A DNA stretch of 64,000 nt, from assembly GCA_002245135.1 (NCBI GenBank), contig NGBS01000889.1:1-64000 (forward strand). Direction: 5' to 3'. The DNA is from Proteromonas lacertae (taxonomy: Eukaryota). Shown here piece after piece: positions 1-33,381 of the stretch (positions are counted from its first letter, which is position 1; every line of letters starts with the position of its first letter). Below the pieces are notes generated by a model. That model ran no database searches. It worked only from the letters and a program-made list of their open reading frames with translations, and was not told the DNA's origin. The translations under genes were made by a program, and so were the position numbers.

Positions 1-1571
1 TTTAAATAACATATACTTCCATCCTCTTTATGAATTTCTCTCCAATTTTTAACACCCATTCTTCAATTCTTTCACTTTCTTTCACTTTCTCTACAATCTT
101 TTTCCTTTCTATTTCAGCTAAGGCAGTTTTCTGTGCTTGTTCTAATAAGAATTTATTCTCTTTTCTCTCTCTTTATTTGTTCTCTTTTTCAACTGTTCGT
201 TTAATTCAGCTTCCCATTTTATTCTTTCAGCTTCAGCTTTTCTGCTTCTCATATACTTTTGCTTTTGTTCTTCATCTTTTTTTGCCTTTCTTAATATTCT
301 CGCTTCTCTTCTACATATTCCTCTGTAACATTTCTGAATCTTTCAAAGCAGATGATATTCTTAATTCTTTACCTCTTTTTCATGTTTTAATTTCTATTGG
401 CATAAAATAAATTTTATAAAATATACTAATTTCTTAAAGTTCTTCTTTGCTACATGTCTTCTCCAAATTGATTGGAATTTTACAGCTGCATTTATTCTAA
501 TCCATATAATCATCTTCAGTTTTCATCTTAATTCCAAAAGTATATATCTGGCGAATATCAGCTCTATGTAGTGTATGAACATCTGTTTTAGGAAATTGAA
601 ATATCTTAAGTGGGCAATTCTTACTTCTAAATGTTTTGCCATTCCAATTTGTCTCTTATAATGATCAAGAACCATTTTCATACCTTTCAAACCTCTTAAA
701 TCCATTTTAGCATAGTACTTTCTATAAAATCTTTGTATTAACTTTGCAGATTTTGTTCTTTCAAGTTGTCCAGTTTTCATTAGTTGAGTAATATGTCTAT
801 CTCTTACCATTCTGAAGAAACTTTCTATTTTTACTGCTGATTTATAAGCTCGAACCCTCTCATCTTCTCTCTTTCTTGACTTTCGAATCTTGCATTCTTT
901 ATTGCATGTCTAGCTTCATGACATCTCCAACAACATTGTATTATTATTGCTTTTTAGATTGATATCTTATTACAACTATCTTTTCATTATATTTTCTTCT
1001 TCACATACATTCTAATCATTGATTGTATCTTTATTGCTGCTCTATCAGGTTTTAGACATCTATTCATTTGTATAAAATCATATAAATATTTTATACATTT
1101 TTAAGTCGCTTTTGTCTTTCCAATCTTTGTCTTTCTAATTCAGCTAATCTCTTCTTTTCTGCATCCATATTGTCTAATACTTCTCTCCTCTTTTGGAATC
1201 TCTTTCTTAAATGAATCTTATCAACAAAATGTCTACAGAATGTTTGAATTATCTCATAGCATTGTTTTAACTTCTTTGAATACATTTTAGCCAACTTCCT
1301 ATTATTTAATATATTAATAAATTCAAAATATACATTCTAATAACTGATTGAATCTTTGTTGATAGTTTATTCTTCAGATTCATCAATTTTATTGCTTTAA
1401 CTCTTCTTTTAGCTAAGAATCCTCTGGCTATTGTATTGATTATTGTTGCTTTTTCATTCTGTATTCGAACTATTCTTTGTCTTTCCTTTTCATTTATCTG
1501 TTGTCTTACAGTTACACGATCTTTCAACTCTCTTCTCAACAGATAATTATGATAGTGTCTTTGAATCTATT

Positions 1572-1603
<32 letters not shown>

Positions 1604-3128: not shown

Positions 3129-3331
3129 ATTGAATTAACGGCAAATACGTTTAGAATTCAGTAAATATAAGACTTATTATTATATAATGTTCTATTATTC
3201 TTGACAAATTATAATTTTATAAACCTCAAAAAAAAGAATTTAATATTCAAAACGTATATTCAAGATCTGATCTTATTGCATTTATTATAAAAATATTCTC
3301 ATTTACATTAAATACTGTACATCATGTAGAT

Positions 3332-3736
3332 CTAGACAAATTTATCAGGTAATAGATTGTAACGGTCTATTCTATCTAACTCCATTCTAGTTCTACTATG
3401 CAGATAAGTTGGTCTATCCCATGTGGCAAAAACATCTTCTGGTGATACATTCTCATCAATTCCATCAATACCAAACTCTTCTTTGATGAAACCTGGATTA
3501 GCAATTCTTGAAGAACTCTCGTTGACGTATATGAATGAGAAATAATCTTTAAGAGCTGCCCTGTACTCCTTGATGTTCTGATAATAATAAATAAACAATA
3601 TACAGCATCTGGTGATCGTAGTTCAGGCAATACTAAATCTGAATAGTCATCTTCGTCCTTATATCTACAATAAATCACACTAGTGTAAATACTTCTTTGG
3701 AGAATCAGTTTTCTTTGGCTTATCGTCGTTTTCCAT
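3332..3736 (-). CDS. Small acidic hypothetical protein (MENDDKPKKTDSPKK...LLPDKFV), 2 introns, duplicate copy A
   Basis: Mirror of 10062-10466. Splicing two short GT-AG introns joins the overlapping 151-aa and 88-aa track ORFs. Confidence 0.65.
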
Positions 3737-3925
3737 GATTGCGGCGCGAATAGAAGTGAAAAATGATTAGAATGAATGAGGATTTGATTATCCAATAAAA
3801 TATTTGGCGGGAAAATCTTAATCTTCATCATCTCAAATAGTTTTTAAGGGGGTAAACCCATAAATTCCTCTACAATATTGATATAAAAACATAATAGTAA
3901 AACAATATAGAGTTATTACAGCTAA

Positions 3926-4606
3926 TTAAAAGGTTGATTTATCAAAATTTTCTATTATGTTAAGCTTCCATGTTGCAATTGCCATATCTCTTGCAATTCT
4001 CTTGTTGGCTTTAAGAATTTTCTCTAGTCTCTCCATCTCATAAATTACGTAGTCATCTCCTTTTTCTATGATTTTCTTTGCACATCTTATGTAATACTTT
4101 GCATATTCCAATCTAGAAAATATTTTAAAATAAACAAAAATATACTTCTGACTGTCTTTTAAACCATTTGCATATTTTTCCATCTTGGCAAGTGCTTTAC
4201 TCTTGTTCTCATAGAATAATCTTGCAAGATCATTCATCTCTATACGGATATAGATTTATATTTATAAATACCAGAAATACTTCCTTCAATTTGATCATCT
4301 GCGATTGTAGTAAACCAATGCATCATTACATCATATGTATATTCACCACCATAAGGTTGTCCTTCTCTACTACCTCTATGAATCATCACTACTTTGATTT
4401 GTTCATCATCAATTTCATATTTCTCAATTAAATTCTCTGGTAATTCCACTCCTTCAGGTACACTGTCCATATCTGGATATTCGCCCAGTCCTGATGCTTC
4501 ATGCATCTTTATTTTGTACATTCTTATCTAAAAAATACAAAAATCAAATTCATACTCTTTTATGAAGCATTGGCTCTTCCATTACTGTTTCAGCTAATTC
4601 TTTCCA
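3926..4606 (-). pseudogene. 5'-truncated copy of a thioredoxin-fold/ERp29-C (PDI ERp38-like) gene
   Basis: C-terminal EYAKYYIRCAKKIIEKGDDYVIYEMERLEKIL resembles the ERp29 C-terminal domain. The upstream intron acceptor present in the other copy is replaced here by IFT80 sequence at 4607. Confidence 0.7.
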
Positions 4607-5718
4607 GGTATAATTAAACTACAACTGTATCTCAAATCAAATGAATGAGGAGAAGTCCAATTACCACATTCATATATAAAACATTGAGTTGATGTTGCTA
4701 CAACTAAATGATCATAACTCATTGCCATTTCCACTATTCTATCACGATATTCCAATTCTTCTTTACTACCATTATTACTATCAATTATTTGAATTGTTCT
4801 ACTATTTGTTTCTTCTACTGTTAAGGATTTCCATTGTAATTTTCTTCCAATTGCATATGCTACAAGCATTGAACCTGTACCACAAGCACAACCTAATACA
4901 GTACCATCTGTACTCCAGCACATATCAAAGGGAGATCCATCTTCTATTGCTTGTCTTGCACTACAGAATCCATTATGTTCACATAATCTCAATGAACCAA
5001 AACAACCAACTACAAATTGATCACCTGATGGTTTCCAAGATACTGATGTGATTACATTGTCTACTAAAGAACTTTGATATAATAATCGACCATATGGATC
5101 CCATATCTTATATCTACAATCTTCACCACCTGAGATTATTAGATTATTTACTGAATTCCAGTCAACTTTCATTATTACACCATCATGAGCTTTCCAACGT
5201 AATTGTCTAGCTGCATTTTGTAAACCTTTGATTAATAAATCTTTTCCTGAAGCAATAACCATTTGATCTCCATCTCCACCCCAAGAGAAGGAATATACTG
5301 AATTGGGTAATTGTGCTATTACTGCTCTTGCCATACCTGTTTTTGACCATGCTTTTACTTGACCATCTTCACCACAAGACACAATTGCTCCTCCATCCAT
5401 ACTCCACTTTACATTAATAACAGCTCCACGATGTGCATCTACTTTCTTTTCCTCTCTACCACTTTTGTTTACTATTCTGTAAGTACCATCAGTACAACCG
5501 ACTAAAAATATGTCTGAAGAGCTAGCTCCATGTGTTGGATACCAATCAATTGATGTGATACAACTATCTAAACTACAAACTGATCCTAAATTTTGACCAT
5601 CAATATCCCAACGATATATTGTTTGATCATCAGAACCTGTGTAATATTCATTTGATGGGCTGAAACAGATTGCTGTTGCCATATCTGTATGGCATCTCTT
5701 ACCTTTTCTAACATTCAT
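4594..5718 (-). pseudogene. IFT80: Intraflagellar transport protein 80, N-terminal WD40 half only (3'-truncated)
   Basis: Diagnostic segments GEDGQVKAWSKTGM, WKAHDGVIMKVDWNSVNNLIISGGEDCRYKIWDPYGR and LEYRDRIVEMAMSYDHLVVATSTQC match IFT80. The ORF ends at 374 aa, a few codons after crossing the duplication junction at 4606; full IFT80 is about twice as long. Confidence 0.88.
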
Positions 5719-5984
5719 TATTACTTTTAAAAAATCAAAATAGATTAGGCTTAAACAAATAAGAATGAATATAAAAATAAGCCTCGAGCGTTTTTTGAAT
5801 TTTGAATTTTAAAGCTGTTTTTCTCTTCTTGGAAACCACATTGATCCGTGTTTTATATTTTTATGGACAATATAAGATGAAACAGAGGTATAATTGAGTA
5901 AAAATTAGTAGAATAAGAAGAAATGTGAGATAGTACAACTACTACCCAAAAAATGTTATTAAGCGATAGAAGCAGTTATTATAA

Positions 5985-9079: not shown

Positions 9080-9872
9080 AAGTTAAATCATACAACCCTC
9101 AATTACTTTGTTAATGGAGTTCATTTTGCTGCTGTTATTGTCAAACTTTTGCAGTTATGTATATTAATTATATTTTTAAATTGTATTTAGTTGGAAAGAA
9201 TTAGCTGAAACAGTAATGGAAGAGCCAATGCTTCATAAAAGAGTATGAATTTGATTTTTGTATTTTTTAGATAAGAATGTACAAAATAAAGATGCATGAA
9301 GCATCAGGACTGGGCGAATATCCAGATATGGACAGTGTACCTGAAGGAGTGGAATTACCAGAGAATTTAATTGAGAAATATGAAATTGATGATGAACAAA
9401 TCAAAGTAGTGATGATTCATAGAGGTAGTAGAGAAGGACAACCTTATGGTGGTGAATATACATATGATGTAATGATGCATTGGTTTACTACAATCGCAGA
9501 TGATCAAATTGAAGGAAGTATTTCTGGTATTTATAAATATAAATCTATATCCGTATAGAGATGAATGATCTTGCAAGATTATTCTATGAGAACAAGAGTA
9601 AAGCACTTGCCAAGATGGAAAAATATGCAAATGGTTTAAAAGACAGTCAGAAGTATATTTTTGTTTATTTTAAAATATTTTCTAGATTGGAATATGCAAA
9701 GTATTACATAAGATGTGCAAAGAAAATCATAGAAAAAGGAGATGACTACGTAATTTATGAGATGGAGAGACTAGAGAAAATTCTTAAAGCCAACAAGAGA
9801 ATTGCAAGAGATATGGCAATTGCAACATGGAAGCTTAACATAATAGAAAATTTTGATAAATCAACCTTTTAA
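9080..9872 (+). CDS. Thioredoxin-fold plus ERp29-C protein (PDI ERp38/ERp29-like), more complete copy; start codon not resolved
   Basis: Splicing the intron ending at 9190 gives CCYCQTFAVIWKELAETV (CxxC thioredoxin-like context), continuing into ORFs 9277-9558 and 9561-9872 with the ERp29-C-like tail. Confidence 0.6.
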
Positions 9873-9982
9873 TTAGCTGTAATAACTCTATATTGTTTTA
9901 CTATTATGTTTTTATATCAATATTGTAGAGGAATTTATGGGTTTACCCCCTTAAAAACTATTTGAGATGATGAAGATTAAGA

Positions 9983-9995
9983 TTTTCCCGCCAAA
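9983..9995 (+). promoter_or_regulatory. Candidate E2F-type site TTTTCCCGCCAAA (mirror at 3803-3815)
   Basis: Matches the TTTSSCGC consensus, with a second TTCGCGCC at 10048-10055. Both lie within about 80 nt upstream of the ATG at 10062 in otherwise AT-rich DNA. Confidence 0.4.
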
Positions 9996-10061
9996 TATTT
10001 TATTGGATAATCAAATCCTCATTCATTCTAATCATTTTTCACTTCTATTCGCGCCGCAATC

Positions 10062-10466
10062 ATGGAAAACGACGATAAGCCAAAGAAAACTGATTCTCCA
10101 AAGAAGTATTTACACTAGTGTGATTTATTGTAGATATAAGGACGAAGATGACTATTCAGATTTAGTATTGCCTGAACTACGATCACCAGATGCTGTATAT
10201 TGTTTATTTATTATTATCAGAACATCAAGGAGTACAGGGCAGCTCTTAAAGATTATTTCTCATTCATATACGTCAACGAGAGTTCTTCAAGAATTGCTAA
10301 TCCAGGTTTCATCAAAGAAGAGTTTGGTATTGATGGAATTGATGAGAATGTATCACCAGAAGATGTTTTTGCCACATGGGATAGACCAACTTATCTGCAT
10401 AGTAGAACTAGAATGGAGTTAGATAGAATAGACCGTTACAATCTATTACCTGATAAATTTGTCTAG
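10062..10466 (+). CDS. Small acidic hypothetical protein, duplicate copy B
   Basis: ATG at 10062, two short GT-AG introns, TAG at 10466; same sequence as 3332-3736. Confidence 0.65.
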
Positions 10467-10669
10467 ATCTACATGATGTACAGTATTTAATGTAAATGAG
10501 AATATTTTTATAATAAATGCAATAAGATCAGATCTTGAATATACGTTTTGAATATTAAATTCTTTTTTTTGAGGTTTATAAAATTATAATTTGTCAAGAA
10601 TAATAGAACATTATATAATAATAAGTCTTATATTTACTGAATTCTAAACGTATTTGCCGTTAATTCAAT

Positions 10670-12196
10670 ATGTATTTGTCATTAGTTATTATCTATAGGA
10701 AATCTAATCGTTATTCAAATCAGCCATCAGGTAAGATTTGTGAATATAATATTTAGAAACTGTTTCACCAAGCACCAGAACATCATCCCCGTTGAGACAA
10801 GAAAAGATATATGTGTCAGATATAGATGATTCTGGAACTACTCCAGAAGAACCTCTTGATACTTATTCCATATTTCACATGAAATTTCGTATTTCAGTTT
10901 CATTTATTGAATAGCTCACACAAAAGACAGTTGGAATACATCACCATGGAATAGTACAGATGAAAAAATAAAAACAGCTCAAGAATTTGAATTAGAACAG
11001 AAAAGAAAGAAAGTAATAACATATATTTCTATTGCTATACTAGAAAAAGAAACAATCAACACGTGTTTCAACTTATAAATCATTAAATGTAAGAGATTTA
11101 CTAATAACAAGTCAAGATTTAACCAGATCAAATTCACCACCAAATCAAAAAGCTAAGACTGTATCATACGCAACAGTATCAAGTGAAACTAAATGTAAGA
11201 GTAAAAAGAAGATGAAATCAAAGAGTATAAGTAGTTTGACCAAATTACCAGACATAAATTCAACAAAGAAAGTTAAAAAAATTAAAACTGATGTAGATCG
11301 AATAAATAGAGTATATAATGAAGAAAGAGCATTATCAAAAAGAATAGATGCTATGTGTAAACAGTCATTTGATTTTTTGCCTTTATCATTCCTTGAAGAT
11401 CATAAGAATAACAATGTTACACAATATAGAGCAGCAGCAGCAATATTTAATGTATGGATAAGAGTATATTACAGATTATTCCAAAAATCGATGAATCAGT
11501 GGAAAAAGGTTGTAAGTGATATAAAACTGCATGAAGAGATGTATTATGCAGCTGAAAAGAAGAAAAGATTAATTACATTTGCATTATATAACTTAGAAGA
11601 TATTGCATTAAAATGTAGATTATATGCTGGTTTTGATAGATTTGTAAAACAGAATATAAGAAAGAAGAAATGGATAAGACGAAATGCAGCTATAAAGATT
11701 CAATGTATGGTTAGAAAACATTTAGCAGTGAAATATGTAAATTTCTTAAAGATTGATAATAATGTAGCAAAAAGAGATAAAAGAAAGAATATAACCAAAG
11801 CATTGTTATTTGAATTTGTTGCTTGTCGAGTGAATAGTAGGAAAGTATTTAGATCAATTTTAGATAAGAATGCTACAATGATTCAAAGATTATATCGTGG
11901 AGTATTAGGAAGAAGAATAGCTAAAACACATAAAGAATGGATGTTGGAGAAGAAGAAGATTGCTGAAGAAAAACGAATCTTACAGAGAAAATGTGCTATA
12001 AGAATTCAATCGATCTGGAGAGGATATATAAGACAAAAGAAATATAAAGAAAGATTAAGAAGAATAGCAGAAAGAAAACAGAAGAGATTAGAAGCATGTG
12101 AAATAATACAGAGAGTATATAGAGGTCATAAAGGAAGAAAAATATAAAGAAAACTATTGAATAAGAAATTATATAAGAATAAAGCTGCTGTTACTG

Positions 12197-12229
<33 letters not shown>

Positions 12230-12320
12230 TCAAAGACACTATCATAATTATCTGTTGAGAAGAGAGTTGAAAGATCGTGTAACTGTAAGACAACAGATAA
12301 ATGAAAAGGAAAGACAAAGA
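10670..12320 (+). pseudogene. 3'-truncated duplicate of the IQ-motif gene with a premature stop
   Basis: Same translation as the minus copy until TAA at 12145-12147 (TAC in the partner). Homology ends abruptly at 12320. Confidence 0.85.
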
Positions 12321-12401
12321 TTCAGTTACTTATTGAAGTGTATATTTTAATTGATATATTATTAAACAGAAGTAAAAGAAACATAATTATAATAATGTTA
12401 T

Positions 12402-14929
12402 TTAATTATTTCCTTTAGCTTCTTCTTTCTCTTTTGCCCATTCTCTTAACAATTTATGATATTCTTCACATATGTTTGGCATATCTCTTTCTAGTTCTTC
12501 CAATTCTCTTCTTTTAGCATATTTATAGATATTCGGTAAGCATAAAATATCTAAGACAAACTATACATAAAATATATATAAATAACAGATTATACCAATA
12601 TTTGGCAAATAATCAAAATATTCTTCCAAATAAACTATCTTCATCTGGTTTAGTTTTTCTTCTTTGCCTTCTTCTGTTGTACTTTCTTCATTATAGTCAG
12701 TACTAGTTTCAAACTCATCTGGATCATATCCTGGTGGTAATGTTGGTGAAACTGTAGTAGGAGCTTCTGTTGTAGGTAAAACAGTTGTTGGAGTTTCTGT
12801 TGTAGGTGAAACAGTTGTTGGAGTTTCTGTTGTAGGTGAAACTGTTGTTGGAGTTTCTGTTGTAGGTGAAACTGTAGTTGGAGTTTCTGTTGTAGGTGAA
12901 ACTGTAGTAGGAGCTTCTGTTGTAGGTGAAACTGTAGTAGGAGTTTCTGTTGTAGGTGAAACAGTTGTTGGAGTTTCTGTTGTAGGTGAAACAGTTGTTG
13001 GAGTTTCTGTTGTAGGTGAAACTGTAGTAGGAGCTTCTGTTGTAGGTAAAACAGTTGTTGGAGTTTCTGTTGTAGGTGAAACTGTAGTTGGAGTTTCTGT
13101 TGTAGGTGAAACAGTTGTTGGAGCTTCTGTTGTAGGTGAAACTGTAGTAGGAGTTTCTGTTGTAGGTGAAACAGTTGTTGGAGTTTCTGTTGTAGGTAAA
13201 ACAGTTGTTGGAGTTTCTGTTGTAGGTGAAACTGTAGTAGGAGCTTCTGTTGTAGGTGAAACTGTAGTAGGAGCTTCTGTTGTAGGTGAAACAGTTGTTG
13301 GAGTTTCTGTTGTAGGTAAAACAGTTGTTGGAGTTTCTGTTGTAGGTGAAACTGTAGTAGGAGCTTCTGTTGTAGGTGAAACTGTAGTAGGAGTTTCTGT
13401 TGTAGGTGAAACAGTTGTTGGAGTTTCTGTTGTAGGTGAAACAGTTGTTGGAGTTTCTGTTGTAGGTGAAACTGTAGTAGGAGCTTCTGTTGTAGGTGAA
13501 ACTGTAGTAGGAGCTTCTGTTGTAGGTAAAACAGTTGTTGGAGTTTCTGTTGTAGGTGAAACTGTTGTTGGAGTTTCTGTTGTAGGTGAAACTGTAGTAG
13601 GAGCTTCTGTTGTAGGTAAACTGTTGTTGTAGTTTCTGTTGTAGGTGAAACTGTAGTTGGAACTTCTGTTGTTGGCTTAATTGTTGTTGGTATTAGTGAT
13701 ATATTTTCATAATGTTGATATTTATCAATGTGGCATATATCTCCTTTAACTGCTTTATATCCTTGAGGAACCTAAATAATATTATTATAGTTGTAATATA
13801 CTTTTAGAGGATTTGTCATTCCATTATAAGGACAATAATAATGATCATCATCACAAGGCAACATATCAACTTCATCTGTAGGACAGTAGTGACCTTTAGG
13901 ACAATCTTCACAAAACATTGTTCCAACATTCTTTTGCCATTGTCCATCTGGGCATCTTCCATCACAATATTTATGTTCATAACCATAAATTTTTGATTGA
14001 TTTGATTTCACCAACTCTGGACACAACTTTGCTTTACCATATGAACAATAAGAGTTTATTTTGAAAGGTAAAGAAGTTGTACTATTTTTTATACCAGCTA
14101 CATTAATACATTCTTTCACACATTCATATTCTTTTGCTTCTAAGACAGTTGTTCCATTGCAATATAATATTATCTTTGAGTCACAATTTGCTATTATATA
14201 AAAAATAAATGTATACTAATGAAGTCGCACTTTGAACAATCAGCTCCTATATATTGCTCACATAATATTCCATATGTTGGCTTTTCTGTGCATGTATTTA
14301 TTACATCATAAAATAGACCTTCATCATTACTTATAGCCTTTTCACATTCTTCTACCTTTTTCGGGACACTTGATCCTTCTGGGCAATAATGACTACTGAA
14401 ATTACATGGTAATTTATTTTTTTCATCTATTAAATAATATGTAACCATATACTTTCAGAACAATAATATCCTTCTTCACATTTTACGCATTTACGTTTTT
14501 CAACATTAAACTCTTCACCTTTTGGACAATGTTGGTTTCCACATAATTCATCGCTATACACATTTTCTTTAGGGATGTAAAGGCTGGGGCAATGATATCT
14601 GTATCCATATTTACAGTAGTATGCATATTGACAAGGAATAGATTGATGAGCGTTGACATAACTTTCGTTATAACAAAATGGTAAATAGTTTGGAATTGAC
14701 TACATAATTAATATTATTGAAAATATACTATAATTATTTCTTCTGTTGTAAATCCAGGGCAGTAGTAAACTCCTTCGGATGTGCATTGAGCTAGTTTAAT
14801 GTTAATTAGAAATATTAATACGATCTTCGCAAAGCAAACAACCTTTAGCTGTATGTCTTTCCCAACAGCACACTCATACCTTACACACAAGCAACAACAC
14901 AATAAAAAAGCTAAAACAATGAATTTCAT
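12402..14929 (-). CDS. Type I surface protein: signal peptide, Cys-rich CPxGxYC repeats, Thr/Pro mucin stalk, TM helix, short tail; contains apparent 1-nt deletions
   Basis: MKFIVLAFLLCCCLC leader; CEDCPKGHYCP, CEEGYYC and HYCPEGS motifs; TETPTTVSPT repeats; WKNILIICQILFVLDILCLP hydrophobic segment. Frame breaks at about 13620, 12655 and 12633. Confidence 0.7.
12744..13672 (-). repeat. Coding tandem repeat, 30-bp unit x about 31, encoding TE[T/A]PTTV[S/L]PT
   Basis: Visible 30-nt period (acagttgttggagtttctgttgtaggtgaa and variants) with a few shuffled polymorphic sites. Confidence 0.97.
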
Positions 14930-18042: not shown

Positions 18043-21000
18043 TTAATTTGAACTAGCCAATGGATTATTAGATACTAATTTACTAGATTTCTTTATTACA
18101 GCATCATATATTATTCCTTCAATTTCTGGATCTAAAAAGAATCTATCTGATTCAGATATTGTGGCAATTTCTATTGGTAATCTATCCAATATATGAGGAG
18201 TTACTCTGAATCTTCCTTTACTGGCTTGTTTCTTTTGTAGTTTTGACTTTTCACGACTTGTACTTCCACTATGAGATAAAGAACTTGACATCCATGTTGT
18301 TCTTAACTCAAATAAATATATATAAGATATTTTATTTCCAAACAAAATCAATACGATAAAAAATACTCCTACTTCTACACCAATTCCTCTTATTCCCATT
18401 AATGTATCTGGTTCTGAATCCATTAAATAGTTTAATGGAATTAATATCACTCCTAATATCAATATAACTGATATAGTTGATAATAAAGGCATTGATTCGT
18501 TAAACTCGGATGATGCTTTTCTTACACTCCATGCAATTTTAGCACCAAATAAACAAGAGATTGTTATAACTGCGATTTGAATAAATACAAAGGCAATATT
18601 CTCTGTACATTCTTGTAAATAAATATCTTCTAAATATGTTGAATATGTTTCACTGTATGATAATTCTGGTTTTGATCTATCTACACCCCACCATATTGCT
18701 AAATATATTAATTCGATTATTATAAACACGCCTATCATCTTTAAAATCATCCAATTAGACATTTTTACTCTCATTAGCTCTCGGTTATTAAATAATTTAT
18801 GGATTCTCCAAGCTTTACATATTAATATTGATAATAAGAACGTTATGGCTGAAGCTAAAAACCATACTCGAAATGCACATATATACTCTTCACTAGGCTT
18901 CACTACAAATATATCACCAATACAAGCTAATAAAGCTAAGGATAAGAGAGTATAGAATAGAAATATTGGACTAGAACTTTTAATTATTTTTGATTTCTTA
19001 TATTTGAATATTATATACGCAATTAAAATACAGAAGCAACAGATAATTACAGATAAACTAATAATCACATTTCTTATAGTATCACTTAATTCATATGTTG
19101 AAATGATTTTAGTATAAATACAATCAGATGGGTTTAAATATATTGGTATTGCTTCTAATACATTTTCTTTTCCTTGCTTTGGATGAACTTGCATTATACT
19201 ACTTTCTGACAATCTAAATATATATACATTCTTTGATATATGATTGTTATTTAATACTTTCGTTACACCAGATGGAGAATTCAAAGAAATATACTTCAAA
19301 CTTAATTCAATATAATCATTAGAAGGCCATTTAGTTGGTGAATAATCTGATGAATATTCAACAGCTGTTTTCCATAAATATATTGATGTATAACTATTTT
19401 CATATAACTCATTCAGTTCAAATGCATTTTGGAAATATGATGTTGTTAATTTTTGAAATTTGCTAGATTCCCTTACAGATACACCTGAAGAATATGGAGA
19501 TACAACAAAAGAACCTTTTATTAATGTTCGATAATCTGATGCAATATCTGCAGGATCATATTTTAGGAAGAATAAAATCATATTTTTGTATTTTGAACTC
19601 TTCGTGATAAATTGAACGAATTTTTCATTTTCTGAAGCTATAAATAGATTAATTATTGCTATTCTATCATAAGTATCCAATATTTCTTCTATTTTGAAAA
19701 TTACTTCATTTGCTGCTACATCATAAAATGGTGAAAACATTGAATAGCCAATCACATTTATGCCTACTTGTTTAAACCCTGAAGATATTACAAATATTTC
19801 ATTTTCAGTAGAATTTCTTTCAGGTCCAACTATATAAGCTAAATTCAATCCAATTGTTGAAAAATATTGTAATAAAGCTTGAGTTCTTTGGTTTATACTT
19901 AATCCTGTTACTATTAAATTCTTATTAAATGTATAACCATCATCTCTACCTGTAAATATAAACATAGAATCTCGATTCTCTAAGTATCTATTTACTTCTT
20001 TATTACATTCAGCTGTTATACATCCAAAGAATGTATTACTCTTTCCTAATTCAAATATACTTCGAACATTTACAAATCCATTATTTATAGTTATCCAACT
20101 ATGATTAGATTTTAATTCCCTTCCTAATACACCTCCATTTGCATTGATTTCATCAATAATAACATCTTGTAATAAACAATTATACTTCTCAGTTTTACCT
20201 CCTAAATCTGTTTCATGTAAGAATGTCAATACAATTGGATCACTACAGTATTTTGCACCTTTATTTTCATCACTTAAATCACAGGAACAGCCAAAATCAT
20301 CATTATTATATGGATCATATAATTTTGGAATATATAAAGCAGTTGATCCCCAATTTATTTCATTATGTCCATTTTCATCTATTTGAGCACAATATATTCT
20401 TCTCTTCACATAATTATTTGTATGAATTTCAATTTGACCAGATGGAACATCCAAATAATAATGAAAATAATCAGTAAAATCAGATACTTTAATAGAATTA
20501 CTTTTTTGTACTATTGTTTTCCATATTTGCATTGCAGTATAAGCAGATTCAATCTCTCCATTTATTGATATTTCCATACCAATTCTTGTATGAACAATTT
20601 TATTCATTGTTTCAGCCATATATGGAATATCAAGTTTATTATGTTCACTATCAGCTAATTCTTCAAAATATGAATTCAAAGTCATCATTCCATATTTACA
20701 ACTGTTATCTAAAAACTCAATATTCATTGAATTTAATATAACATTTATAAATCTATATTTCGGATATCTAAACTCAGTTTCTTCACAAATTGCCATAAAA
20801 AATTCAGATTGTATTTCATCACTATTAAGAATAGTAATAATATTACCACCATCATTCAAAGCACGATTCATATCTTTCAATACATTTCTTAATGTTGTAT
20901 ATACTTCTGTACCTTTGGATGTTAATTGCATATTTTGCATTTTATTTACGATTCTTTCAGATATATTTGAAGCATAATAATCATTAGTGTGTAATATAAA

Positions 21001-24000
21001 TGCATCAGTTCCTATTTCTAATAATTTTCTGATTGTTGCTTCTGCTAATTGATAAGGCGTTACATGTGTTTGTATCACATGCTTATAACAGTCATTGCCA
21101 TAAGAATTTCCTATATGAAAAAAATAATTTGAACTGTTTGAAAACATTGGACCTAATATTTCTAATGCTTCTGCTGAATCTCCACCAAATACAAACTCTA
21201 TATTGTCATTATCTAACATTTCTTTTGCTTTTTCTTTCAATATTTCATTACTTGATTGACTGTCCAATAATTTATAATCAATATAATATCCTATTAATTT
21301 GTCTGGACTATCATTTATTTCATCCATTGCTGCTAATATAGCATCAAATAGTAAATTACCTTTACTACTTGATTCACCTGTCATTGGTAATATTATTCCT
21401 ATTACTACTGTTGGAACACTTTCACCATCTAAGATATTTGGATCAGAAAAATCACACCTTCTATAAGCAAGTCCTGAATTCTTCAACACTTCTGGCACTT
21501 GAGCATCTCCTGCTTTGTAAGTTATTTCTGTGTATTTATTTTCATCATACACAAACATCAATTTTGGAATTCTTGCTAAATATTGATTATTACTAAAATA
21601 TATTTCTCCTTCTATTGTTTCATATTTAAAACCTCTTAATACATTCTTTACTTTAACTACTGACAAATCTGCTACCAAATCTCCATTTTCATAGGTTATT
21701 GTTTTAGGTAATGTATTAGCAGATTTAGCTAATAACATACCAGATGTTCTTGCTCTTACCATTAAATCAGAAACTACTACTTCTGAATCAATTCTTTGAT
21801 ATATCTCATTCACAAATTTTGTATTTATTTCACTTGGATCATCTTTCCAATAAAATCCAAAATACTCATAATTTGTAAAACTTAATGGCAAGATCTCTTG
21901 TATATTCTTCATTACAATAACATTAGTTGTATAAATATAAAAATTTTCATTCATTGCTGTCATTAATTTATCAAATACTACTGAATGTCCCCAATATAAA
22001 ATGCATTTCATTGACAATCCTCCATCACTTGATAATATATCTAAAACATCATTAATATTAAATTCATCATCTTTACTATAACTTATATAATCATGTGGCA
22101 TATAATGACTATTCATAAATCCAACAGTATACTCTGCGATTATATCATTTTCAGGTGTTATTACAATCAATTTATCATAAAGTCTATTTCTAATTACATT
22201 CAAAGCCGAATCATAATATTCATAATAATTATTAGCAACAAATATATGACTTGCACATTTATCTCTTTCAATTGTATTTAATTGGAATAGTATGCTTTTT
22301 GTTTCGACAACTGGATTTATAATTTCTAAACAATCATCACTTAAGTAACTAAATACAGCTAATGGATTTTTATCTATTATATATTCATAGATTGTAGTTC
22401 TGCATGAATCTATATTAGATCCTTCATCGTAAATATCAGGTTCTATTGTATAACCACCTATTCCACCTTCATCATTTATATTACTAACCATTAATTGAAA
22501 TGCATCAACTAATCCTACAGTTTCTTTGGAAGATGTACCAGTTAAAGATGCTACTAATGCTAATCTTTTCACTGGAACTTTATATTTATCAGCATCCTCT
22601 CTTCCTGAACTAAATGAACAAATATAACTATAGCTATTGTCTAAATTCCAATTCCAGGCTTTAGGTGCTTCTTGATCCAGTTTACTGTAAATTAAATTAC
22701 AATATTGACCATTTGAATCATATTTGATGATAAAAAATGGTGATGTGATATAATGACTATCTGTTAATGTCAATACTCCACTACCTACTTCTAATGTTAA
22801 ACCATAAGAAGCGCTTCTGACTTCATCAATATTAAAACTGCCTGCTTTCTTAGCTGCATATCCATATAGCATTATACTAGCATAAGTTGATTCAAACAAC
22901 CCAGTTGGCATGTTCAAATCTACATAATTCATAACTTTCTTTATATAATTTGTATTTGTATCAGTAACTGCATCATATGTATATCTTACAAGCTTATATA
23001 CATCCTTACGTAATGAAACATCCAAATTATCAAATTCTTCTAACTCTAATAAAGTATCAACTATTCCAATTACACTTGTATCTACTCCTAATCGTGTATA
23101 ATACATCATAAATGTTTTAAATATATCAATCTTTGTAACTGTTGATATTATTATTCCATGTTTCAATTGTTTAGTAATTTCTACTACTGTCTGATATGTA
23201 ATTGGATTTGAATCACTAACTAAAAATGACCCAGCTTTTTCTATCAAACCTTCAGCTTGAGCTTCAATCATTGTATTAACATCAACGGAATAATAAATAT
23301 CTTCAGCTAAGGTGAAATAATAATCATAATCAGTTTGAAGTAGATATTCAACTAATCTTGTAACATATTGATTTGAAACAAGGGATGTATAAAACATATA
23401 TTTATTACATTCTTCTCCTACTGATAATCTAGGATAATATAATAATCTGTTTGTTTCAACTAGTTTAGTTTGGACAATTGATTTACATTGTCCTCTTGTA
23501 CATCCAACAAATGCTACAAGGTCTTTATCATCATCATATTTATCTAATAATGTTTTTAAATACTCTTCATCACTATGATAATCCATAAATTCCATTAGTA
23601 ATATATGACCATTAATTGGTCCTTCATCATACAACTCTCGAAATGCAGTTATTGCTGCTAATATCGCTTTTGAATGAACTTTCTTCATATCACCAGATGT
23701 TGAAAATATAATTCCAATCTTCTTTGATGGTAATAAATATTTCGTATTATTATATTGAAAACTACATCTATATAATGGTTCAGATCTAAATATATTACCA
23801 TAAGGTCTATTTACTAACATTATAGAGGTTTGCCAAATCACTTTCGTTTGTAATTTACCATTATCATCCAAATACCATTGTTTATAAGATAATACATTAT
23901 CCATATTATTATTCTCATGAAATGTAAATTCACCCAATGCAGTGTTGGTTGGATATAAATAAAGATTTCTTCGAAATTCTTCATAATTGATCGATTTACA

Positions 24001-27000
24001 TTTACTTGCTATATTTATAAAGATTTGAGTCATTGCAAATCCTCTTGCTGCTATTATATTTGTTAATCCAACAAATGTAAACAGTTGGTTAAAATAGTCT
24101 TGTACAGTCACTAAAGCATCATTATTATCATCTTCAATAAATGAATCCCAATAATAATGTCCAGCTACATCATTACCTAGTAAACTCACAGCTACATTAT
24201 TCATATTTATATTGAATGAATAAAACAATGGTGGTAATAAACCATGAGCAGTCATTGCAGGTATTAAATTATACTTTGCATCTCCTTCTAGCATATTAAT
24301 CAAAATAGCACCTTGTGGAGATAATCTTTTTATTGTTTGAGTTACATCAGATACATCAGTTTTACTTAAAGGAAAACGATAAACTGCTTTAAATGATCTT
24401 CCTAAATATGCATAATCATCAATAAGATGTTGAGAGAAATATGCAGAATATGTTGTATCTGTATAAAACAAATATTGATCAAATGATGATAAATCCATTA
24501 AGATAGGTATTAATGTATACTATTGAAATAATAAATAAATATATAAATATACAAAACTAGAATATGAAAGACCTGAATAATATCCATTATAATAACATTC
24601 TTCACCTTCATAATCGGTTGGGAAAAAGAATAAAAACTTCAATTCATCAGCTGCTTCCATCACAGCTCTTCTAATTTCTACTGTAAAACCACCAAATATT
24701 ACAAATATATTCTGTTCTTCTACCATTTTAATTACATTCTTTTTGGCTAATTCTGGGTCATCTTCATCATGAATAATCCATAACATCAAATACATACCAT
24801 CAACTCCACCTTCATCATCATTTTGTTTATCAATAACTGTATATATAGCAGAATAATATAATAATGCATCTCTTCTATAGGCTGGATTGTTTGGAAGTAA
24901 TAATCCTATTTTGTAAGATGGTTGTTGCATATTACCATGCATTCCAGTCATCCAATCACATTCAAAATATTTGGCTCTATTCACTTTCATTCTATAACTT
25001 TCTCCTTTCCATACATTTGATACTGTCAATTTATAATCAATAAAGCCATTTTCATTTATAACACCAAAATAAGAAGCATGTAAAAAGTCATTATCCATTG
25101 TGAATTTCAAATTACCCATTGCAGTTTCCATTGTTGTAACATACAATTGGGTTTGAATATCTTTTAAACCAAATGTCTGTGATTCAGTAATTACTTGAAG
25201 AAACCATTTTGTTGAGGCACTTACAACTAAATCTTTTAATTCTATATAATCTTCTTTATCAGCAATATAATCATAAACCTGTCTAAACTGTTTATCTAAA
25301 GGATTGTCTGTTTCAATTATTGAACTATAAACATAATGACCTTTAGCAAATGTACCATTAAAATGGGTATTTGTATTATCAAATAAATATATTGTATAAT
25401 CTTTTGACATATCTTTTGAAGAACTATATTCTTCTAATGAACCAAAGAAATTATAATAATTTCTAAACAGCGATTGTGATTGATCTCCTTCTAATAGTGC
25501 AACTATTGAACAACCATTAGGTAAACTCTTTCTTATTATGCCTAGATAAGAATACAAATCTTCATCATATGTAATTTCATCCACTTCTTGATATAATTTT
25601 ACATCAATACCAAATGCTGTTAAGATATCCTTAATAAAAGTGATCCTATCACTATATAATTTATTAGCAGTATATAAAACGACAATATCTTTGGATGTAT
25701 GATATAATAAATGCAATAATGTTGGATATACTTCTTGTCCTTGTGTAACTGATGCAGATATTATTTCTTGAACACATACATGACCTTCATTAAAACCAGT
25801 ATAAACAAATAATGCATCTAATGACTGAATAATATCTTGAATAATATCTCTCTTTTCAGGATTACATCCACCAATTATCAGATTAAACCCACGATTAAAG
25901 AACCTTATTATTAATGGAGCAGCATCATCTAAAGTTTGAGGACATTGATATAATTCAGTATACTATTTATATAAAAAATTATAATAAAAACTATAATTGT
26001 AATATACAACTGGTGTTCCTTGTATCCCTCCATTAAAATTGATTGTCTCAACATGTTCTTGTACTAACATATAATCCAAAAATCCTGAAGAATCAGTCAA
26101 ATCAAATAAACATGCAATTCCTATAAATACAGTAGATTTCATGGTTAGATTATTTGCCAATGAGAAATCTGCAACATAATACTCTTGGTTGTTTTTCTAT
26201 GTTAAAATTAATAAAAGAATAAAATATAATATATACTAGTTGATTGTATGGTTTAGCATTAATAGGAAATGGAATTTCCATAACAATCTGTAAATCATCT
26301 TCAAGAATTTTGCCAATAAACATATGACTTGATATGTAATTAGATTTATCTATTTTTACATTTTCATGTAAACCTTCATAAGTAAGACTATATATTGCAT
26401 TTCTTAATTCAGTTGAAGATGAATTTGTACTAATAGAAGCTTTTGCATTGCTAATCATATTAATACTATCATAAATGATAACAAATCCTTGATTAACAAT
26501 ATCAAATGATTTACCCTTTGATTTATCCAAGAATGCTTTAAATTCTACATATTTTGGATGTATTTTACATAAAGTATTGTATGAAGTTATTGCATAATGA
26601 CCAGTGTATTCATCACCATAATAATCATCATAATCAAATAACATTAACGGATTTTTCTCTTTATCATATTTATTAGCAGTATAATATTCATGCTACAAAT
26701 GATGGAATATCAGTATCTAATATACAAATAATAGCGATTTGATCATTAGCATTATTATCAATTACATCATCAATTTTAGCAAATGCATCAGCTGGTTTTG
26801 TATCATTATACATTATTGGTTCTACAAGTGGTGGTTTTTTAACAAATTCATACAATAATTTCAAATAATAGATTCTTTGTTCTAACAACATAGTCTTCTT
26901 GCTTGAAACAACAATATATTTCTTGAATTTATACAATATCCAATAGAATGGATATTCTAAATATTGATGAGTGATATGATTGATCTATTTATTATATTGA

Positions 27001-29875
27001 CAATAGATAGATATAAAATATACAAATAATATATTTCTATATGCAACTTCACCATACGCTTTATCCATCACTAATAACAATTTATCCCATTTATCTAAAT
27101 ATGGTGATAATAAATCCTGTTCAGCACTTGAGGAAGTTCCAAAGAAACATAACAAATGTGAATTATCAGCATAACGTGATGCTTTTTCAATTAAATTCTC
27201 AATATTATCATCATAACCTGTTGCTTCGATTATCACATTATATCCATTAATGCCTCCATTTTCATTGATTATATCTGCTGTTAATAATAAGGAATCTAAT
27301 TTCTGCATTCCAGCTTTAGTAGTATGATCAAATAGACTAGCAACAATATAATAATTTTGTAACTGTTTTCCTTTAACACTATCAGTAGACTTCCATGAGC
27401 AAGTATAAGCTTTATTTTTATAAACAGGGGTTGTTCTAACAATTATATCGTCATGAACTACAATAAAACTATCAGTATCATTAAACTGTATCAATCTTAC
27501 AATACCTTCACCATATCCACTAAAATATACGTTATAAGGTCCAGCTGCTGGATCATTAATCTGTAAATTGTATAAATACTCTTTGTAATGAGATGGATCT
27601 ATCGAACCACTCAACTCCATTGTTTGCTTAATTAATTGAAATAAATTATAAAATACTCCAACTTTATTTGTTAGAGGATAAGGTTCATTCAAATTTGATT
27701 CTAATGATTGTTTAAATTGTTTAAGAACTGATGAAGGTTCTGGATATTTATCATAAAAATGAGTTGCAAAAGTAACATTTGCAGCATATTTAATATCCAT
27801 TGATCTAATCATAAGTTCATTCAAATTGAATGATATAACATGAAAATCATTCTCATGTGTAAGGTTATGTCTTTGCAATGCTTGTAAAACTGGTATTTGA
27901 TATAAATCTTCAGCGGTTATTACTATTACACCTCCACTAGATGGAGTAATATTAAATACATCAATAGTAATATTCTGCATAAAATGATCTAAATAATCAT
28001 CATCAGTGGATATAAAATCTCTATAAATTAAATTGGAAGTATCATATCCAAACGCCATTAATCTTTCAATTAATAATTCTCTTGTATAATACCCATATTT
28101 ATACTTACTACCTAAAATCAATACTCTATCAAAACCTAAACTATTAATATATCTTACTGTTGGAATAATATAATTCAAATTAGTTGGTTTTCCCTATTAT
28201 CAATATATAATTATAATAATAATACATATATTACATTCCCTTGACAATCATCTCCTTCTACTGTTCCCATAAAGAAGAAAATGATATTATCATTACTTAT
28301 TTCTTTACTAATTTCCATTCTTTGTTCAGATGAACAAGATAAGAATATTGTATTGATTTGATATTGTTCACTTTTATCATTTATTGCTTCTATTGTTTCA
28401 GTTATATTTTCTGGATTTAACTCTATTATATAAGGCTGTATTGGTATTTTCATTATTCCACTCTATTTATATTAATAATAATAATAATAATAATAATATA
28501 CAGAAACATCATTATAATAATCACACATAAATATCAGAAAACTGGTCAATAATCTTTCTTCTTCATACAAATAACCATTGGTCAATGAATGTACAAAACC
28601 AATAGTAATAGAATTAATATTAACAACTCCAGTTTCAGACTTCAGAAAATTACAAGTCCATTCCTTCTTATCACTAATAATTTGAGATGGTTCAAAGTGT
28701 ATTGTCAATGGTAAAGTATATTTTAATTTCAATTTACCATCATTTTGTATTTCATATATATATTGAGTATGACTAATGTAATTATTACTCACTAACTCTA
28801 TTTCACCTCCTCCATATCCTGTTGGATTGTTATAAACTATGTTGAAAAATGAATCAGTATTTTCTAATGATGATTGAGTCATTGCTTGTGCAATTAATTG
28901 AATATTTCCCATTCTATTCAATAATAATATGCATTATAATATAATAAAATATACATATAAAGAGCTTCATAATCTGATTCAATATTTACTGTAGTTTTAT
29001 AATTATCTATGTATAATTTAGTGTAATTGTTTATCATTGTTTCATCATATCCTCTAAATATTAAATTACCTTCATTATTTGCAACATATAAACCACCTAA
29101 ATCTTTGATTTTCTCAATTGTTAATCCACCTTCTAAATATATTAACTTTGGAACATTTTTATTGTTAGTTTTTAACCCACTTATTTCATCTAATACATAC
29201 TTGATTGTTGTATCATCATCAATTGTTGTGAATATGGCAGCTTTTAAATTTGTATCTGAAATATTCTTTACATAATCTGTGATTTTATTACTCAAATCAT
29301 CATCATCATATAACATATTATAAGCATCTAATCCATAAAATTTACCAGCTGCCTTTAATCTAACAGCATAAAACTCATCTAATCCCTTATATTTATTATT
29401 ACCTAAAAAACCAATAACATCCACTTGATTAGATAATATATACATAACTAAAATAAAATATAATAAATAGATATATACATGAATGTATTTGAGGTATTAT
29501 ACTTGTGCCCATAATAAAGTGTTTTTCACATAAACCGATTGAATAGGTATTTAAACACCACATGTAGGACGAATTATTAACAAGAAATTCACGAGTATAA
29601 TTCAACACATAATTATCACAAAATCCAAATATAAGAGGAGTATTTGCCTTAAATGTGTCTCTGAAGCAAGTCTTAATAGCCTCTTCAGCGTCTGCGTCAG
29701 TAGCTTTATATTTACACTCCAGAACATCTACATCAGCTATTTCTGAAGTCTGATTTTTTAAATACAGATCTATCAGACTATATTTATTATGATCATCTGT
29801 AATTCCATCTCTTCCTAAAAATCCTATATTTATAGAAGCAACTAAAGGCCATATCATAAAATAAATTAAAAACAT
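18043..29875 (-). CDS. Giant class C (GABA-B-like 7TM) GPCR with nine tandem UrtA/AmiC-like periplasmic-binding (Venus flytrap) domains, about 3,840 aa
   Basis: Signal peptide MFLIYFMIWPLVAS; nine ~390-aa repeats with type I PBP motifs (VIGIILPMTG, DEINANGGVLGREL, FFPTDYEGEEC); 7TM with IIKSSSPIFL, CAFRVW, KAWRIHKLF and EFNES. Eight introns at about 29448-29478, 28914-28954, 28463-28501, 28194-28225, 26985-27023, 26197-26236, 25963-26007 and 24520-24552, plus one frameshift near 26690. Confidence 0.88.
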
Positions 29876-29990: not shown

Positions 29991-31603
29991 TTACTGAATG
30001 AAACAACTGTTTTGATTCTCTGGATTGTGTCTGCCTGATACTGTTACTGGAGCAGCATTAATACCTCTTCTGTTTAATAAACATCTGAACCACATTAATC
30101 TCAATTTAGCAGATTCAATATCTTTTAAATCTTCATCTTTTGACCACATTCTTTCACCTGCAGCTGCTGCTCTTGGCCATACAGTATTGAACCAATCAGA
30201 AACATCTACAGTTTCAGCCCACATGCATACTTCACCACCTAAAATATTTTCTTTGTATTGTCCATCAATACCTTCATCTAATTTATTGTTATAGAATGTT
30301 TCCCATTTAGTATCAAGATAATCTAAATACCACATTCTATAATTAGATAAGATTCCTCTATATCCAGATTCTACAACTTTCTTTAAGTTCTCTTTATTCA
30401 ACCAAATATGAATAATTGTTCTCTTATCTAATTTAGTACCAAAAGCATTCCACACTTCTTCCCAATTCACTGGATTACGATTTTGATTTAAAACTATTTG
30501 ACCAGCTTTGTTTACAATATAATGATAACCTTCTAAATTATTCATTCCATGTTCTTTTAACCAGTTAGCAATTCTTTCAACTTTGCTCCAACAAGCTGTA
30601 TCTACTTCATCACCACCTAAATGGAAGAAATTATCTGGGAATAAACCAGCAGCATGTTTTCTTCCAGTCATTTCACTAAACATACTATCTAAGAATTCAT
30701 AAGTTTCATTCTTTGATAAATCTAATGGATTTGGACAATCTTCAGATGGACATATTTCTGGAATACCTTTACACCAACTAGTACTATGACCAGGAACATC
30801 AAATTCTGGCATTACTCTTACACCTCTCTTTCTAGCATATTCTACTATTTCTTTTACATCAGCTTGTGTGTATTTTTCATATTCAGTATAAGCACCTTTC
30901 CAGAAATTTGGATAGTTCTTGGATTGAATTGGTTGACTTTGATCATCACTGATATGCCAATGTAATACATTGAACTTAGAGAATGTTAATGAATCAATAA
31001 TCTTTCTAATGCTTTTTGTTGATAAATAATGACGAGATGTATCCATTAAAATACCACGATGAGAATAACTTGGAGCATCTTCAATCTTATATGGAGCTTT
31101 TTTGATAAGGTATGTTCTTTCTGAATAATCATAAACAACAATTTGTGATAGTGTCTCTAAACCATGATAAGCACCATAAACAGTTTTTGCTTTAATAGTA
31201 GCAGCATTTCCGTCAGCTGGGATGGTCAATTCGTAAGATTCATCTACACCAATTTGTAATTCAGCATCAAGGTCTTCAACACTGATATCTACTCCAGCTA
31301 AATATACTCCATTCTTTGTTTTTGGAGCTGTATGTGGGAATATTAAATTGTAATATCTATAAAAACATATAACCTAGAATTAAAATACCTTACTACAGCA
31401 TCTGTTAAATCTTGATGGGGAGTGATTATGTTGAATTTAAAACTGTCACGATTCACTAAAATAGTCTTATCACCAGTTGTTAATGATTTAGGTTGTGGCC
31501 AAATATGGACATCAAGCTCGGATGCTGGATATCTTGGATCTTTAAGTTGGCCTGCAAGTGTTGTAGCTAAGAACAATAATGTTAAAGCAAGAGTAGCTTT
31601 CAT
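29991..31603 (-). CDS. Secreted beta-N-acetylhexosaminidase, glycoside hydrolase family 20
   Basis: HRGILMDTSRHY, KFNVLHWH, PEFDVPGH, catalytic FHLGGDEV, GGEVCMWAE and WPRAAAAGERMW; signal peptide MKATLALTLLFLATTLA; one intron at about 31357-31388. Confidence 0.95.
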
Positions 31604-31776: not shown

Positions 31777-33381
31777 ATGAATAAAGCAATTGTTGCTCTT
31801 TTCTGCATCTTGTCAATTTGCAGTGCTAAGAGTATATAGTTTTCTAATTTATCATTAGATTTAAAATATCCTGCGTCTGATCTTGATGTTCACATTTGGC
31901 CTCAACCAAAACAGATATCAACAGGTGAAACAACATTAGTCGTCGATAAAAACTCATTCAAATTTGAAGCTCTCACTAAGTCAGCTGATTTAGAAAAAGC
32001 TTTCGAAAGATATCAATATATCATATTTGATCATCAAGTTCCAGATGTAAACAGAAGAGCAGCTGTAGTACTCGACAAAATCACCGTAACTGTTGATGAT
32101 CTTAAAGCTGAATTACAATTAGGTTTTGATGAGTCTTACAACTTAACAATCCCAAATGATGGTAGTGCTGGTAGTATTCATGCTAAAACTGTCTATGGTG
32201 CTTACCGTGCTATTGAAACATTCTCACAAATGGTAGTCTATTCCTTCAACGATGAAAAATACATCATTAAAGCTGCTCCATACCATATCTATGATGAACC
32301 AACCTTCAAACATCGAGGTATTTTATTAGATACAGCTCGTCACTTTGAATCAGTTCCAACCATTAAGAAATTCTTAGATGCTATGTCCTATGCTAAATTA
32401 AACGTATTACATTGGCATATTGTTGATGATGAAGCTTGTCCAATTGAATCAGAAGTATATCCAACCTATTTCTATGGTGCTTACACTGAATATGAAAGAT
32501 ACTCAACTTGGGATGTTAAAGAAATAGTAGAATATGCAAGATTAAGAGGTATTAGAGTTATTCCAGAATTTGATGTTCCTGGTCATGCTAGATCATGGTG
32601 TAAAGGTTTACCTGATATTTGTCCATCCACTGAATGTTTAACTCCATTAGATGTATCAAAGAATGAAACATTTGAATTCTTACAAAAGTTCTTCGGTGAA
32701 TTTACAGGTGGTGTAAGACGTTCTGGTTTATTCCCAGATGATTTCTTCCATTTAGGTGGTGATGAAGTAGATACAGGATGTTGGAGCAAAGTTGAAAGAA
32801 TTGCTAACTGGATTAAACAACAAGGTTGGAGTAATGATGATGCTTATCATTATTTCGTTAATAAAGCTGCTAATATTGTAATGGATCAAGGTAGAAATCC
32901 AGTAAATTGGGATGATGTATGGGAAACATTTGGTACTAAATTAGATAAGAGAACAGTCATTCAAGTATGGTTAAATCATAAGAATGTTGGTGCTGTTGCT
33001 AATAATGGTTATAAAGTGATTGTAAGTAACAACGATGTATGGTATTTAGATCATGAAGCTACAACATGGGAATCTGTTTATCAAAATGATTTATATCAAG
33101 GTGTTAATAAAGAAAACTACCAAAATGTATTAGGTGGTGAAGTTGCTATGTGGAGTGAAAGAATTGATATTTCTGATTTATTCAGCACTGTTTGGCCAAG
33201 AACTGCTGCTGCTGCTGAAAGAATGTGGTCAAAACCAGAAGATTTAACTAACATTGACTCTGCAAAGAATAGATTATTATGGTTCAGATGTTTATTAGAT
33301 AGAAGAGAGATTAATGCTGCTCCAGTTGAAAAAGGTGGAAGACCAGCACCACCAGAACCAGGTAGTTGTTTCGCTCAATAA
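31777..33381 (+). CDS. Secreted beta-N-acetylhexosaminidase GH20, paralog 2
   Basis: Signal peptide MNKAIVALFCILSICSA, intron at about 31832-31858, then HRGILLDTARHF, FHLGGDEV and GGEVAMWSE. Confidence 0.95.

Follow-up and report, generated by a model that had tools for sequence, protein, structure and literature searches.

We describe here an unusual receptor gene on the minus strand (29875-18043) of a 64,000-nucleotide stretch of Proteromonas lacertae DNA (assembly GCA_002245135.1, contig NGBS01000889.1, positions 1 to 64,000), the whole of which we refer to as the window. The spliced model of the gene encodes a product of about 3,845 residues in which nine flytrap domains of the bacterial UrtA type precede a seven-transmembrane (7TM) domain. 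Our best explanation, which we hold with about even confidence, is that of a G-protein-coupled receptor (GPCR) of class C whose nine head-to-tail UrtA-type copies (R1-R9) form a semi-rigid chain, with a few of the clefts binding small ligands other than urea and the resulting movement being relayed through the membrane-proximal repeat R9 to the 7TM. The DNA is AT-rich and eukaryotic, with a GC content of 23-33% in the window, and the elements of the gene are as follows.

29834..29875, minus strand: start codon and a signal peptide predicted for aa 1-14; aa 2-20 are hydrophobic, and the orthologue P0023 opens with a comparable leader at the corresponding position.
28610..29833, minus strand: R1, UrtA-type flytrap; introns 29478-29448 and 28954-28914; 47 bits on the orthologue profile; 28% identical to R1 of P0023.
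27351..28609, minus strand: R2; introns 28501-28463 and 28225-28194; 92 bits; Peripla_BP_5.
26131..27350, minus strand: R3; introns 27023-26985 and 26236-26197; 94 bits; the conserved Cys pair is absent, as in P0023.
26690..26696, minus strand: one-base frame break in R3; TGA of the upstream frame at 26690-26688; no consensus intron mends the frame.
24916..26130, minus strand: R4; intron 26007-25963; 126 bits; P0003 reads across without a gap.
23725..24915, minus strand: R5, best candidate ligand site; intron 24552-24520; 220 bits; pocket positions conserved among orthologues.
22570..23724, minus strand: R6, the most UrtA-like repeat; UrtA and AmiC matches in the PDB; modelled and compared with 8HIC.
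21409..22569, minus strand: R7, likely spacer; 204 bits; pocket positions variable.
20236..21408, minus strand: R8; 277 bits; included in the structure models.
19090..20235, minus strand: R9, membrane-proximal; 56% identical to P0001 and 49% to P0002; structure model.
18340..19089, minus strand: stalk and class C 7TM (7tm_3); Pfam E 7e-36; GABA-B2 E 1.7e-11; seven helices.
18043..18339, minus strand: cytoplasmic tail (about 98 aa, with a Ser-rich start) and stop codon, from the sequence.

The core of this architecture is independent of splicing, since the last exon alone, a single open frame of 2,158 codons that holds R6-R9 and the 7TM, contains five Peripla_BP_5 stretches and 7tm_3 in Pfam (matches under the cut-off on single exons were disregarded). 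The complete model of 3,845 residues joins ten minus-strand frames between 29905 and 18043, and eight of the nine junctions are GT-AG introns, all of the form GTAT...TAG, 31-45 nt long and with a GC content of 5-15%. A sequence-only reading of this DNA had spliced the ten open reading frames (ORFs) into one gene of about 3,840 residues, and a single model does result, but the ninth junction, near 26692 within R3, is a one-base frame change and not an intron. Two candidate introns were rejected at this break. One (26725-26693) has consensus ends and leaves a stop codon in place; the other (26696-26657), the sole short (<=45 nt) GT-AG candidate that opens the frame, has non-consensus ends and 25% GC, and we set it aside both because its ends are atypical and because its removal would delete residues that align with P0023, which is continuous across this position. 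In our judgement the break is probably an assembly error, with a recent lesion being the less likely account, and recoding or odd splicing very improbable. Coding indels between the two copies of an inverted duplication elsewhere in the window might have gauged the assembly error rate, but the gaps fall where the alignment ends or in AT-rich sequence, and lend no support.

The nine repeats start at 29833, 28609, 27350, 26130, 24915, 23724, 22569, 21408 and 20235, with a spacing of 382-396 residues and no linker between them. All nine score 47-298 bits on a hidden Markov model (HMM) built from R4-R9 of the orthologues only, with a ceiling of -0.2 bits for reversed repeats and of 6.3 bits for shuffled ones (179 reported of 180), which agrees with the nine repeats of about 390 residues, highly diverged from each other, that had been proposed. 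They had also been thought to lie nearer to UrtA and AmiC than to the metabotropic glutamate receptor (mGluR) flytrap, and several comparisons point the same way. The last exon scores 318 bits against Peripla_BP_5 versus 26 bits against ANF_receptor, and the best PDB sequence matches of R6 are urea-binding proteins and AmiC. An AlphaFold2 model of R6-R8 (predicted local distance difference test score, pLDDT, 89.5; predicted template modelling score, pTM, 0.81) has UrtA as its first structural match, and modelled R6 aligns with the UrtA structure 8HIC at Z 46.9 (root-mean-square deviation, rmsd, 2.6; 376 aligned residues), compared with Z of about 31-32 against the GABA-B and mGluR flytraps. 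Because the alignment covers residues 41-431 of 8HIC, to its final residue, the repeated unit corresponds to a whole long-tailed UrtA, and each repeat is predicted to be an entire copy whose Cys-bearing C-terminal tail runs directly into the next repeat. Of the 80 single-domain UrtA genes fetched with P0024, 79 have a tail with the terminal W...CD[WF] motif. Among 73 aligned repeats, 68 retain both residues of the Cys pair and three lack both, R3 of the window and of P0023 being two of these; a disulfide presumably pins the UrtA-type tail. The models predict that neighbouring repeats pack in a defined way, and the high pTM across domains (0.82 for R8-R9-7TM, 0.81 for R6-R8) suggests a fixed inter-domain geometry. 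There are also 21 N-glycosylation sequons.

The membrane domain has a 7tm_3 match of 124.6 bits against a cut-off of 33.5 (E 7e-36) and seven hydrophobic segments at aa 3506-3747. Its best PDB relative is GABA-B2 (E 1.7e-11), and the KAWR motif at the end of the third transmembrane helix aligns with KTWR of GABA-B2, in keeping with the GABA-B-like 7TM that the sequence alone had suggested; the tail behind it, which had been called short and Ser-rich, has the Ser-rich start but extends to about 98 residues. An AlphaFold2 model of R8-R9-7TM (pLDDT 92.6, pTM 0.82) has GABA-B receptors as its top Foldseek matches. The protein thus has the 7tm_3 domain and the N-terminal type I periplasmic binding protein (PBP) flytrap of a class C receptor, with a signal peptide recognised by hydropathy only. 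Pfam gives no match to the cysteine-rich domain NCD3G, R9 stopping just before the first transmembrane helix, and on this test the receptor lies outside the mGluR/CaSR/T1R subgroup. Nor is it a GABA-B receptor proper, having nine repeats as opposed to a single ANF_receptor-type flytrap. Class C GPCRs are obligate dimers that signal through heterotrimeric G proteins. With regard to coupling, it is only the KAWR motif that the receptor has in common with GABA-B2; a homodimer prediction for R9, run without an alignment, gave a score of 0.02, which speaks neither for nor against binding.

Four orthologues, P0001, P0002, P0003 and P0023, correspond to the window protein repeat for repeat, at identities of 49%, 40%, 28% and 34% respectively. 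P0023, a single intronless open frame of 3,244 residues, has a leader and R1-R8 followed by a partial R9, and its alignment spans every one of the nine window junctions, the break included. Comparison of R1-R8 between the window and P0023 gives 108-322 bits on the diagonal and at most 36 bits off it, and since a same-numbered repeat in an orthologue is far closer than the neighbouring repeats, the array is old and each position has been under separate selection. In the two closest orthologues, R9 is better conserved than any other repeat.

Nine residues contact urea in UrtA (W120, S122, Y141, Q144, E146, Y190, F192, N246 and S274), and single changes at Ser122, Gln144, Tyr190, Asn246 or Trp120 are reported as strongly reducing or abolishing binding (PMC10392092). 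When these positions are mapped through the 8HIC alignment, which in divergent loops is uncertain by one or two residues, each window repeat retains 0-3 of the nine in two alignments. Because the urea-pocket residues are changed in every repeat, the receptor likely senses something other than urea. The last-exon protein also scores 290.9 against the UrtA family model TIGR03407, summed over five stretches and below the cut-off of 492.75, and since both its pockets and its score depart from UrtA it is not UrtA proper. Three further, more distant proteins present a different picture. P0024 (3,745 aa, probably lacking its start), P0203 (4,080 aa) and P0204 (3,909 aa) each have nine repeats and 7tm_3 in a single frame, and their amino-acid composition differs from that of the AT-rich family; the presence of 7tm_3 argues that they are eukaryotic. 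At least eight of the nine pocket residues are kept in five of nine repeats of P0024, seven of nine of P0204 and eight of nine of P0203, and the cut first repeat of P0024 keeps 7 of 7 assessable residues, whereas the membrane-proximal ninth repeat of all three retains just one of nine. P0024 scores 2996 against TIGR03407 over nine stretches. The frame break in R3, the wider family, some nine-repeat members of which have intact pockets, and the loss of the urea pocket in all window repeats go beyond what the sequence-only reading had proposed.

Conservation of the pocket positions among orthologues differs between repeats. It exceeds the background in R5 (0.57 vs 0.34, nominal P=0.010), falls below it in R7 (0.14 vs 0.35, nominal P=0.009) and is at background level in R6 and R8, and the five closest orthologues retain Arg-Asp-Arg at R9 pocket positions. 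A plausible course of events would start with an ancestral multi-site urea receptor in which the ninth flytrap acted as transducer, after which some urea clefts would have been re-tuned in the window lineage, R5 first, and others kept as spacers. R5, and perhaps R9 and R4, would then bind new ligands, with R7 and perhaps R3 and R8 serving as spacers; the receptor would be displayed at the cell surface, a cleft would close on ligand binding, R9 would pass closure to the 7TM, and the output would run through heterotrimeric G proteins. The sequence-only reading had suggested a multi-ligand nutrient sensor, which is a conjectural role.

Several points weigh against this account of a ligand-binding chain. 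The structure models cover R6-R8 and R8-R9-7TM, and R1-R5 are assigned by profile only. Ligand binding, expression and G-protein coupling are extended to this receptor from class C biology. The modelled geometry between flytrap and 7TM departs from that of GABA-B (rmsd about 26, TM-score 0.40), so that either the flytrap has a seating on the 7TM unlike the one in GABA-B or it is misplaced in the monomer model. The pocket comparison comprises six orthologues and six repeats, with 7-9 sites per repeat and uncorrected P values; conservation in R9 (P=0.058) and R4 (P=0.094) is borderline and not significant, and a pocket Phe of R5 in the window is Trp in five orthologues. The frame break in R3 lies outside any homopolymer run, so a real lesion is possible. 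The positional match between the AT-rich family and the nine-repeat proteins with urea pockets does not reach significance (P 0.28-0.40), and the 7TMs of the two fail to group in a single clade; convergence could thus account for the nine repeats found in both, and a common origin of this number is suggestive only. It is the R3 break, together with a ligand role that is reasoned from indirect observations, that lowers our confidence in the semi-rigid chain to the level given above.

The break bears on the suggestion that the window copy is a recently broken allele of a real family, in which case a genuine lesion in R3 would leave at most a truncated secreted fragment of about 1,000 residues. 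That no consensus intron restores the frame, that the break lies outside a homopolymer and that a near-identical duplicate elsewhere in the window has a nonsense difference all favour this; on the other hand there is a single lesion in about 3,845 codons, and the repeats on both sides of it are similarly conserved relative to P0023 (28-32% identity upstream, 30-42% downstream), and we regard a broken allele as unlikely, if worth serious consideration. The same junction is what might suggest that several separate genes, for secreted binding proteins and a shorter receptor, were wrongly joined, but a single open frame of P0023 runs across all nine junctions, P0002 spans the last junction and P0003 the last three, and P0024, P0203 and P0204 have nine repeats and the 7TM in single frames, making such a misjoining extremely improbable.

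The state of the pockets can be read in other ways. The ectodomain could be mainly structural, a long stalk for adhesion or for sensing contact or force in which the clefts no longer bind small ligands, and the loss of the urea pocket in nine of nine repeats, the background or lower conservation of the pockets in R6, R8 and R7, the rigid packing predicted in the models and the sequons would fit this. It does not readily account for the conserved R5 pocket, the Arg-Asp-Arg of R9 or the retention of the full two-lobed fold, and we think it rather improbable. That the receptor still senses urea or short amides through a remodelled pocket is a good deal harder to sustain: its nearest sequences and folds are UrtA and AmiC and its relatives retain urea pockets, but 0-3 of nine pocket residues are left where single changes cripple binding by UrtA, according to the available text of PMC10392092, and the TIGR03407 score stays under the cut-off even with five stretches summed. 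We prefer the semi-rigid chain with a few clefts re-tuned to non-urea ligands.

The origin of the array is consistent with serial duplication of a bacterial-like domain, as had been surmised, and construction of the ectodomain in this way is supported. In two quick trees (LG+G4, with support from the Shimodaira-Hasegawa approximate likelihood ratio test, SH-aLRT, only) the receptor repeats form one group beside long-tailed UrtA, with support of 91 and 86; the first tree included 26 of 69 bacterial domains and the second 40 of 80 metagenome UrtAs, the longest branches being omitted. The receptor family may have acquired UrtA once. Repeats r1 and r5 of P0024 are paired with the same-numbered repeats of P0204 in both trees, and r2, r4 and r7 less stably. 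A joint reading, which we put forward only tentatively, would have an old eukaryotic family arise when nine copies of a captured bacterial UrtA of the long-tailed type were fused, once, to a class C 7TM; members of the P0024/P0203/P0204 type would be cooperative multi-site urea GPCRs, with up to eight urea clefts in a rigid chain that signals by way of an always-degenerate ninth flytrap, and the window lineage would have expanded the family and re-tuned its clefts to give a multi-ligand integrator.

The receptor combines features of several known systems. As in GABA-B (GABBR2/GABBR1; 7c7q, 7c7s), the flytrap connects to the 7TM with no intervening cysteine-rich domain, although a GABA-B chain has one ANF-type flytrap and this receptor nine of UrtA type, and the modelled domain orientation differs. 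Long-tailed UrtA (8HIC, 7S6E, 7S6F; TIGR03407), and with it AmiC (1PEA), provides the counterpart of a repeat, one whole UrtA with its C-terminal tail equalling one receptor repeat; UrtA, however, is described as a monomeric soluble transporter subunit (PMC10392092), in contrast to the nine copies of this protein, which are joined to a GPCR and have lost the urea pocket. BvgS/EvgS sensor kinases and GlnPQ-type transporters carry two or three tandem type II binding domains with inter-domain coupling and a kinase or transporter output. They share with the window receptor the serial arrangement of flytraps on one membrane protein, but the latter is a GPCR and has nine domains of type I. For class C GPCRs outside the animals, bacterial-type binding domains (Bmp, OpuAC, SBP_bac_1) on 7tm_3 are already published (PMC3251606, PMC5168858), and supplementary figure text of PMC3971589 lists Peripla_BP//7tm_3. 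In the available text of these sources the N-termini of such proteins reach 1,600-1,667 residues, compared with about 3,500 here, and that text of PMC3251606, PMC5168858 and PMC3971589 makes no mention of UrtA or of tandem copies. The figure in PMC3971589, as far as its text goes, appears to collapse repeated domains, so that copy number is unreadable and a member of this family may be counted there unremarked. No description of a multi-UrtA or nine-flytrap GPCR was found among the top full-text literature matches listed, a scope with most subscription journals outside it, and the gene belongs to an apparently undescribed family.

The class C receptors described in the portions of the literature examined carry a single flytrap per chain, whose closure, transmitted to the 7TM, is the basis of activation models. 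A conserved chain of nine flytraps raises the question of how binding at a distance reaches the membrane, and offers a natural test system for it. The relatives with intact pockets are testable candidates for eukaryotic urea-sensing GPCRs and possible scaffolds for urea biosensors, and the family exemplifies how a particular binding protein of bacteria was recruited to a class C 7TM and later re-tuned.

The extent of the family was sampled in 153 proteins, the best 150 of 2,627 matches (E<=0.001) in a search of representative proteins together with three others. A UrtA-type flytrap is present in 64, two or more copies are present in 43, and five or more repeats with a 7TM are present in 15, up to a maximum of nine. 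As many members are fragments of exons or contigs, these repeat counts are lower bounds. A single 7TM clade unites the AT-rich members (21 rows, SH-aLRT 99), and its several subgroups indicate paralogues. One database labels a family member simply as a urea transport binding protein, which makes the family easy to miss. A search of proteins of 684-2000 aa with exon 5 returned no match at E<=0.001, a first metagenome scan found no related locus, a second found only single-domain UrtA genes (80 kept of 422), and the class C clusters returned from the ESM Atlas all had a single flytrap and a length of about 730-900 aa. We also note two other domain combinations: P0205 has UrtA-type and Ephrin_rec_like repeats with a membrane region that is not 7tm_3, placing the UrtA module on another receptor type, and P0054, P0060, P0062, P0064, P0068, P0071 and P0074 have leucine-rich repeats (LRRs), in some with PA, fused to 7tm_3. 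LRRs were recognised in seven of the eight flytrap-less search matches that were scanned.

The remainder of the window has several other features. Upstream of the receptor lie two divergent GH20 hexosaminidase genes, 59% identical (29991-31540, minus strand; 31840-33381, plus strand), one of which ends about 115 nt before the receptor start codon. The motif TGTTTGTT, presumably a Blastocystis motif, is not enriched in the window (7 seen vs 6.1 expected). A 3.1-kb inverted duplication (1468-4606 and 9192-12327) is 99.7% identical between its arms, and an IQ-motif ORF in the second copy has a premature stop from one substitution. Between the arms is an IFT80-type WD40 gene (4594-5808, minus strand; Pfam Beta-prop_IFT80_2nd), which suggests a ciliated or flagellated host; Blastocystis has lost nearly all ciliary genes, according to the available text of PMC12129017. 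Further along are a mucin-like Pro/Thr/Glu tandem array with a 30-nt unit (12561-13771, minus strand) and large surface-protein ORFs (53805-58957, minus strand) that combine He_PIG Ig-like domains and PA14 domains with a hydrophobic helix at the C-terminus. A 374-bp direct duplication (59128-59501 and 60681-61054) is 99.7% identical, and two HAD-phosphatase-like ORFs (51341-52120 and 61152-61925) are similar to each other by eye.

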